Source of the DNA: Escherichia coli
GTDB taxonomy: Bacteria > Pseudomonadota > Gammaproteobacteria > Enterobacterales > Enterobacteriaceae
DNA length: 357 nucleotides
Assembly (NCBI RefSeq): GCF_003334335.1
Contig: NZ_QOWQ01000206.1
Direction: 5' to 3' (one strand)
Shown here: in pieces, positions 247 through 286 of the stretch
How the letters are laid out: the number at the start of each line of letters is the position of its first letter
Position numbering within the stretch: position 1 is the stretch's first letter
Made by a program: the position numbers and the translations under genes
The notes under the pieces: model-generated
The model's database searches: none
What the model was told of the DNA's origin: nothing
What the model saw: only the letters and a program-made list of their open reading frames with translations

Positions 247-249
247 TAT

Positions 250-286
250 TGAAGAATTAATTACGCGTCGTTATTATGCGGCTCCC
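250..286 (+). promoter_or_regulatory. Candidate sigma70 promoter for the tRNA gene
   Basis: TTGAAG at 250-255 matches the -35 consensus TTGACA at 4 of 6 positions. A 16-bp AT-rich spacer follows, then TATTAT at 272-277 matches the -10 consensus TATAAT at 5 of 6. The GC-rich stretch GCGGCTCCC at 278-286 sits between the -10 and the first tRNA base, as in the discriminator of stringently controlled stable-RNA promoters. This is a sequence match only; the tRNA could equally be processed from a longer read-through transcript. Confidence 0.3.

Follow-up and report, generated by a model that had tools for sequence, protein, structure and literature searches.

The locus raises the question of how a prophage tRNA gene that lies directly behind a DNA methyltransferase gene on the same strand is transcribed: by read-through from upstream, from a promoter of its own, or by both routes. 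The window, by which we mean the whole stretch of 357 nt that was analysed, contains on its plus strand the 3′ end of a phage DNA methyltransferase gene (1–246; the last 81 codons of a 352-aa reading frame and its TGA stop at 244–246, from the ORF call), a 40-nt spacer (247–286) and the first 71 nt of an ileZ-type tRNA-Ile(CAU) gene (287–357). Since the stop codon ends at 246 and both ARAGORN and the Rfam tRNA model start the tRNA at 287, the spacer (TATTGAAGAATTAATTACGCGTCGTTATTATGCGGCTCCC) occupies exactly 247–286, as the first-pass annotation had it. Its GC content is 40% as a whole, 26% over 247–277 and 89% in the last 9 nt (GCGGCTCCC); that of the complete methyltransferase coding sequence is 54%.

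A lambdoid prophage of E. coli JE86-ST05 (locus L001) contains the window with 100% identity, and RefSeq places the methyltransferase gene there at 5188–6246. The protein matches the PHROG families phrog_67 and phrog_6025 (E ~1e-105), and its similarity to the NCBIfam models of adenine-specific methyltransferases is sub-threshold. The tRNA scores 63.5 bits against the Rfam tRNA model. ARAGORN reads the anticodon as CAT and labels the gene Met(CAT), and the RefSeq label is tRNA-Ile. The sequence aligns with ileX of E. coli K-12 at ~89% identity by our own count and is therefore assigned, by sequence comparison, to the lysidine-type tRNA-Ile2. The last 5 nt of the tRNA lie beyond the window, and the end coordinate given by ARAGORN (359) exceeds it. 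An antisense reading frame (261–353, minus strand, 30 aa, TTG start) simply reads the tRNA in reverse complement and is implausible as a gene.

The claim that no intrinsic terminator separates the two genes was borne out. A consensus scan found no terminator-like hairpin in the whole window, and a scan of the full JE86-ST05 locus found no terminator-like site on the plus strand of L001 5042–6552. The RNA of 215–290 folds with −11.6 kcal/mol (z = +0.87), which is not better than shuffled sequence, and an Rfam scan gave no RNA family match within the spacer.

The hexamer pair and its conservation in relatives

A promoter scan of the window returned a single promoter-like site, which matches 9 of 12 consensus positions and lies in the spacer on the plus strand. 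It is made up of a −35 hexamer TTGAAG (249–254; 4/6 consensus positions), a 17-nt promoter spacer (255–271), a −10 hexamer TATTAT (272–277; 5/6 positions, including the A at position 2 and the T at position 6) and the discriminator GCGGCTCCC (278–286), with G or C at 8 of its 9 positions; a GC-rich discriminator had indeed been noted for this allele. The −10 box ends 9 nt before the mature 5′ end of the tRNA. The 16-bp spacing that the first-pass annotation had given for the two hexamers is wrong, as the measured distance is 17 nt, inside the 16–18 nt range of sigma-70 promoters. A second weak promoter, read by eye in the 3′ end of the methyltransferase gene (TTGAGC-17-CAGGAT, 198–226; 7–8 of 12 positions matched), was set aside; it is missing wherever the methyltransferase sequence is missing, and its −10 reads CAGAAT in Sakai.

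Taken alone, the outcome of the window-wide scan is weak, with 1 match found against 0.2 expected in shuffled sequence. Position adds to it, since within the 60 nt upstream of the tRNA a match whose −10 ends 5–12 nt before the gene occurred in 0.8% of shuffles. So modest an excess would also be expected if the hexamers were non-functional, the tRNAs being made only by processing of a Q-antiterminated late transcript and TTG and TATTAT being an AT-rich by-product inherited with the tRNA. The weakness of the −35 fits such an account: it matches 4/6 positions here and 3/6 (TTGCAG) in most relatives, and falls under the scan threshold in Sakai.

The comparison with relatives bears directly on this point. 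Occurrences of the exact tRNA 5′ half were collected from IMG/VR viral contigs, which form the majority, and from E. coli loci, and 123 of them carry enough upstream sequence to be analysed. A pair of the form TTGnnn-17-TA(T/C)(T/C)AT, ending 9–10 nt before the tRNA, is found in 120 of the 123; of the three exceptions, two have no promoter-like pair and one has a weak pair. The upstream neighbour among the same 123 is a full methyltransferase gene in 53, a 3′ remnant of it in 17, sequence without methyltransferase similarity in 47 and a contig end in 6. Altogether 25 distinct promoter variants were tabulated, among which TTG is invariant and four of the six −10 columns are invariant, including the A at position 2 and the final T, and no column of the promoter spacer or the discriminator is. 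The hexamers stand 17 nt apart in all 25 tabulated variants, the best-scoring register being 18 for one of them in a separate scoring. Mean information amounts to 2.0 bits per column for TTG, 1.92 for the −10, 1.11 for the promoter spacer and 1.09 for the discriminator. Compared pairwise, with one representative taken from each of five spacer families, TTG is 100% identical and the −10 93% identical, and the values for the spacer and the discriminator are 42% and 56%; because the families share ancestry, these figures stand for few independent observations, about five. A scan of contigs from species-representative genomes added three loci (L127–L129), whose promoter families had all been seen before. 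E. albertii, one Escherichia sp. and one MAG are the only ones of those genomes that have the exact tRNA 5′ half, and from its distribution the tRNA allele appears to be confined to Escherichia prophages.

Two prophages illustrate the range of upstream contexts. In L002, which lacks the methyltransferase, the tRNA module follows directly after tR′, and the T-tract of this terminator runs into the −35 (GGGTTTTTTATTGCGG; 3981–4041). In L003 the module stands behind unrelated upstream sequence, and TTG is still found at 17 nt, as in L002.

This conservation makes a chance origin of the promoter match very unlikely, and a sigma-70 promoter under selection is indicated because the hexamers are conserved while the spacer between them is free in sequence and fixed in length. 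Part of the −10 conservation could reflect hitch-hiking, as TATTAT adjoins the strongly conserved tRNA, and to that extent it is compatible with non-functional hexamers. That account is opposed by TTG, which is invariant at exactly 17 nt although the intervening and upstream sequences are unrelated. Neither co-inheritance with the tRNA alone nor an RNA processing signal would lead one to expect such a combination of fixed hexamers and variable spacer. RNase E usually targets AU-rich single-stranded RNA upstream of tRNAs, and with 26% GC the stretch 247–277 is AU-rich, so that the conserved elements might be read as an RNase E site or as a leader determinant of RNase P and not as a promoter. 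Such a processing signal is very unlikely here: RNase E recognises degenerate sites, for which a fixed 17-nt register is not required, an invariant TTG and TAnnAT about a variable spacer of constant length is the signature of sigma-70, and significant RNA structure was not found in the region 215–290, for which the z value is given above.

Prophage context and the proposed routes of transcription

The genes of L001 follow one another on one strand in the order RusA, Q, pR′/tR′, a small ORF, the methyltransferase, three tRNAs, a terminator, accessory genes and lysis genes. RefSeq annotates RusA and the antiterminator Q at 3940–4623. The promoter scan places a pR′-like promoter (TTGCAA-17-TATATT) at 4613–4641, overlapping the end of Q with its stop codon, and the terminator scan a tR′-like hairpin with a T run at 4696–4710. 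Between tR′ and the methyltransferase lies an ORF of 65 aa with a terminator-like site of its own (5024–5041). The tRNAs, which are tRNA-Ile(CAU), tRNA-Arg(UCG) and tRNA-Arg(UCU) in RefSeq, occupy 6287–6538, with CCA encoded and inter-tRNA spacers of 9 and 13 nt, and the third is followed by a strong terminator-like hairpin, GGCTCGCTTTTGCGGGCC, and then TTTTTT (6553–6570). Genes for a TerB-family protein, a DUF3927 protein, a nanS-p-type esterase, a holin and a lysozyme lie downstream of this terminator. With Q upstream, a promoter and terminator just after it, a lysis cassette downstream and everything on one strand, the region is a lambdoid late operon. Of 53 Ile-Arg-Arg clusters, 46 have a terminator-like hairpin no more than 120 nt downstream of the last tRNA.

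Several smaller features of these loci were recorded. The tR′-like hairpin is only ~55 nt downstream of the pR′-like promoter (L001 4613–4716), with nearly the same sequence in L003; from this arrangement a terminated leader RNA of ~60–70 nt is predicted, much shorter than the StxS RNA of Sp5 (258 nt). In L002 a 100-nt gap between tRNA-Ile and tRNA-Arg(UCU) (4117–4216) resembles a decayed tRNA-Arg(UCG), and only the Ile and Arg(UCU) genes were called in 29 of 108 loci. The TerB-family and DUF3927 genes (L001 6709–7301), just after the tRNA terminator, fill the slot that stxAB takes in Stx phages. Rfam models further identified the sRNA STnc100 (143 bits; L001 7367–7572) downstream of the tRNA cluster and, upstream of it, a sok antitoxin RNA beside hokD (L001 1747–1921).

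Co-orientation within a lambdoid late operon downstream of Q makes read-through from the methyltransferase gene into the tRNA, followed by processing by RNase P and RNase E, the expected route, as the first-pass annotation had proposed; both steps would follow from this context. In such a setting read-through would suffice for tRNA production, as the account with non-functional hexamers has it. Against that account, the hexamers are kept in L002, where the module follows a terminator directly and read-through would be blocked in lysogens, and the tRNA operon has a downstream terminator of its own.

We therefore favour, with a probability of about three in four, a working sigma-70 promoter in the spacer that would drive a self-contained tRNA operon embedded in the lambdoid late operon, the same operon being also read through after induction. 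With its own promoter and terminator the tRNA operon could be expressed in lysogens. On the basis of what is established about lambdoid phages and about tRNA processing in E. coli, we propose the following course of events. In a lysogen, transcripts from pR′ would end at tR′ and the tRNAs would come from their own promoter, RNase P cleaving off a short leader of a few nucleotides. After induction, Q-modified RNA polymerase from pR′ would cross the methyltransferase gene and then, with no terminator in the spacer, reach the tRNAs; these would be excised from the late transcript by RNase P and trimmed at their 3′ ends.

An own promoter would allow lysogens to express these tRNAs without prophage induction, and once the prophage is induced, the terminator-free link to the methyltransferase gene would leave them in the late transcript. 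Rare E. coli codons (AUA, AGA/AGG and CGA) are read by these tRNAs, which lie just upstream of the slot that holds the Shiga toxin genes in related phages.

Homologous clusters in Stx phages

The ileZ-argN-argO cluster is annotated in Sakai Sp5 and in EDL933 933W, in both just upstream of stx2AB, and the JE86-ST05 cluster is of the same type. It is said to have been described by Plunkett and colleagues in 1999 with the 933W genome. In 933W and other lambdoid prophages the same three tRNAs occur in the same order and late-region position, and the window represents a copy from a non-Stx prophage with a full methyltransferase gene upstream. Sp5 resembles the window locus closely: it shares the tRNA-Ile/Arg/Arg cluster and the terminator behind the third tRNA, its TATTAT is identical and also 9 nt from the tRNA, TTG again stands at 17 nt, and in both loci Q, pR′ and tR′ lie upstream. 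The two loci differ in the −35 (TTGCAG in Sp5, TTGAAG in the window), in the discriminator (CCTGCGCCC and GCGGCTCCC, respectively) and in the downstream cargo, which is stx2AB in Sp5 and the TerB-family and DUF3927 genes in the JE86-ST05 locus. They differ further in the methyltransferase gene, which is intact in the window locus (352 aa), whereas Sp5 and 933W keep only its last ~115–130 nt directly after tR′. In these two phages (L124 1205–1325 for Sp5, L126 14450–14563 for 933W) the methyltransferase remnant, the promoter and the tRNAs are retained, the deletion having spared the promoter; RefSeq lists the remnant as a pseudogene in EDL933.

Primary 5′ ends have been mapped in Sakai by dRNA-seq, and that study reports a start site driving the tRNAs of the Stx2a phage Sp5 (Sy, Lan and Tree, PNAS 2020; PMC7547250). 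The Sakai interval upstream of ileZ2, ~160 nt long, comprises the end of the methyltransferase gene and then the same spacer, whose TTGCAG-17-TATTAT stops 9 nt short of ileZ2. The Sp5 start site is likely to belong to these hexamers, an assignment that falls short of proof. The proposal, made already on first reading, that the tRNA has its own promoter is strongly supported by the hexamers' being conserved behind several different upstream sequences, and this start site is in line with it. That a primary start site is reported for the homologous tRNAs also speaks against non-functional hexamers, which in view of the evidence on both sides we consider unlikely. For EDL933, the accessible Cappable-seq material gives pR′ starts at 1,354,183 and 1,354,192. 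A comparative paper on pR′ mentions neither tRNAs nor methyltransferase, and a literature search on ileZ, argN and argO with promoter or prophage gave nothing usable.

On this evidence the spacer promoter is the ordinary sigma-70 promoter of a well-known prophage tRNA cluster and is essentially known, since experiments on the Stx2a phage of Sakai have already detected its homologue. What is contributed here is the location of the probable hexamers and the demonstration of their conservation across contexts, which is of use in annotating transcription units in lambdoid prophages and introduces no new principle.

Start position, discriminator and regulation

The −10 lies so near the mature 5′ end that a leader of 0–4 nt is implied. 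From the usual distance of 7–9 nt between the −10 and the start, transcription is predicted to begin at ~284–286, which would give a leader of ~1–3 nt. Positions 7–9 after the −10 are all C and are followed by the G+1 of the tRNA, and C is not a preferred start nucleotide. Because the −10 ends 9 nt upstream and these three positions are C before a G, transcription might begin at or near the mature 5′ end itself. In its strict form, with a start at or within one nucleotide of that end and a nearly leaderless tRNA that, if transcribed from its own promoter, would depend hardly or not at all on cleavage by RNase P, we judge this to be highly unlikely.

The spacer promoter had also been called stable-RNA-like and growth-rate-regulated, which would make it a functional, stringent promoter of the rrn P1 or tyrT type that responds to ppGpp/DksA by way of its GC-rich discriminator. 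A C as the second base after the −10 is linked to short-lived open complexes, as at rrnB P1. The promoter resembles rrnB P1 and tyrT in driving a stable RNA and, in this allele, in the GC-rich discriminator with C at that position; the same C is found in 32 of 37 relatives (column −8), which is compatible with rrn-like kinetics and proves nothing. The differences weigh against such a regulation. The discriminators of the five family representatives have between 33% and 89% GC, so that the GC-rich form is not a shared trait of the family; the hexamers stand at the optimal distance of 17 nt, as opposed to the 16 nt typical of rrn P1; and the sequence directly 5′ of the −35 is methyltransferase coding sequence in which no A-tract UP element, and no FIS region, was seen by eye. 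Because of the unconserved discriminator, the spacing and the lack of a visible UP element, the label is unsupported, and growth-rate regulation of the spacer promoter appears doubtful.

A counterpart is provided by ileX, the host tRNA-Ile(CAU) gene of K-12 (L125 964–1110). It is unlike the phage operon in being monocistronic, in having upstream sequence that is not homologous beyond the hexamers and in carrying a TTGCGA only 13 nt from the −10. It is like the phage unit in its compact layout: its TATAAT box stops 10 nt short of the mature 5′ end, and the gene is immediately followed by an intrinsic terminator.
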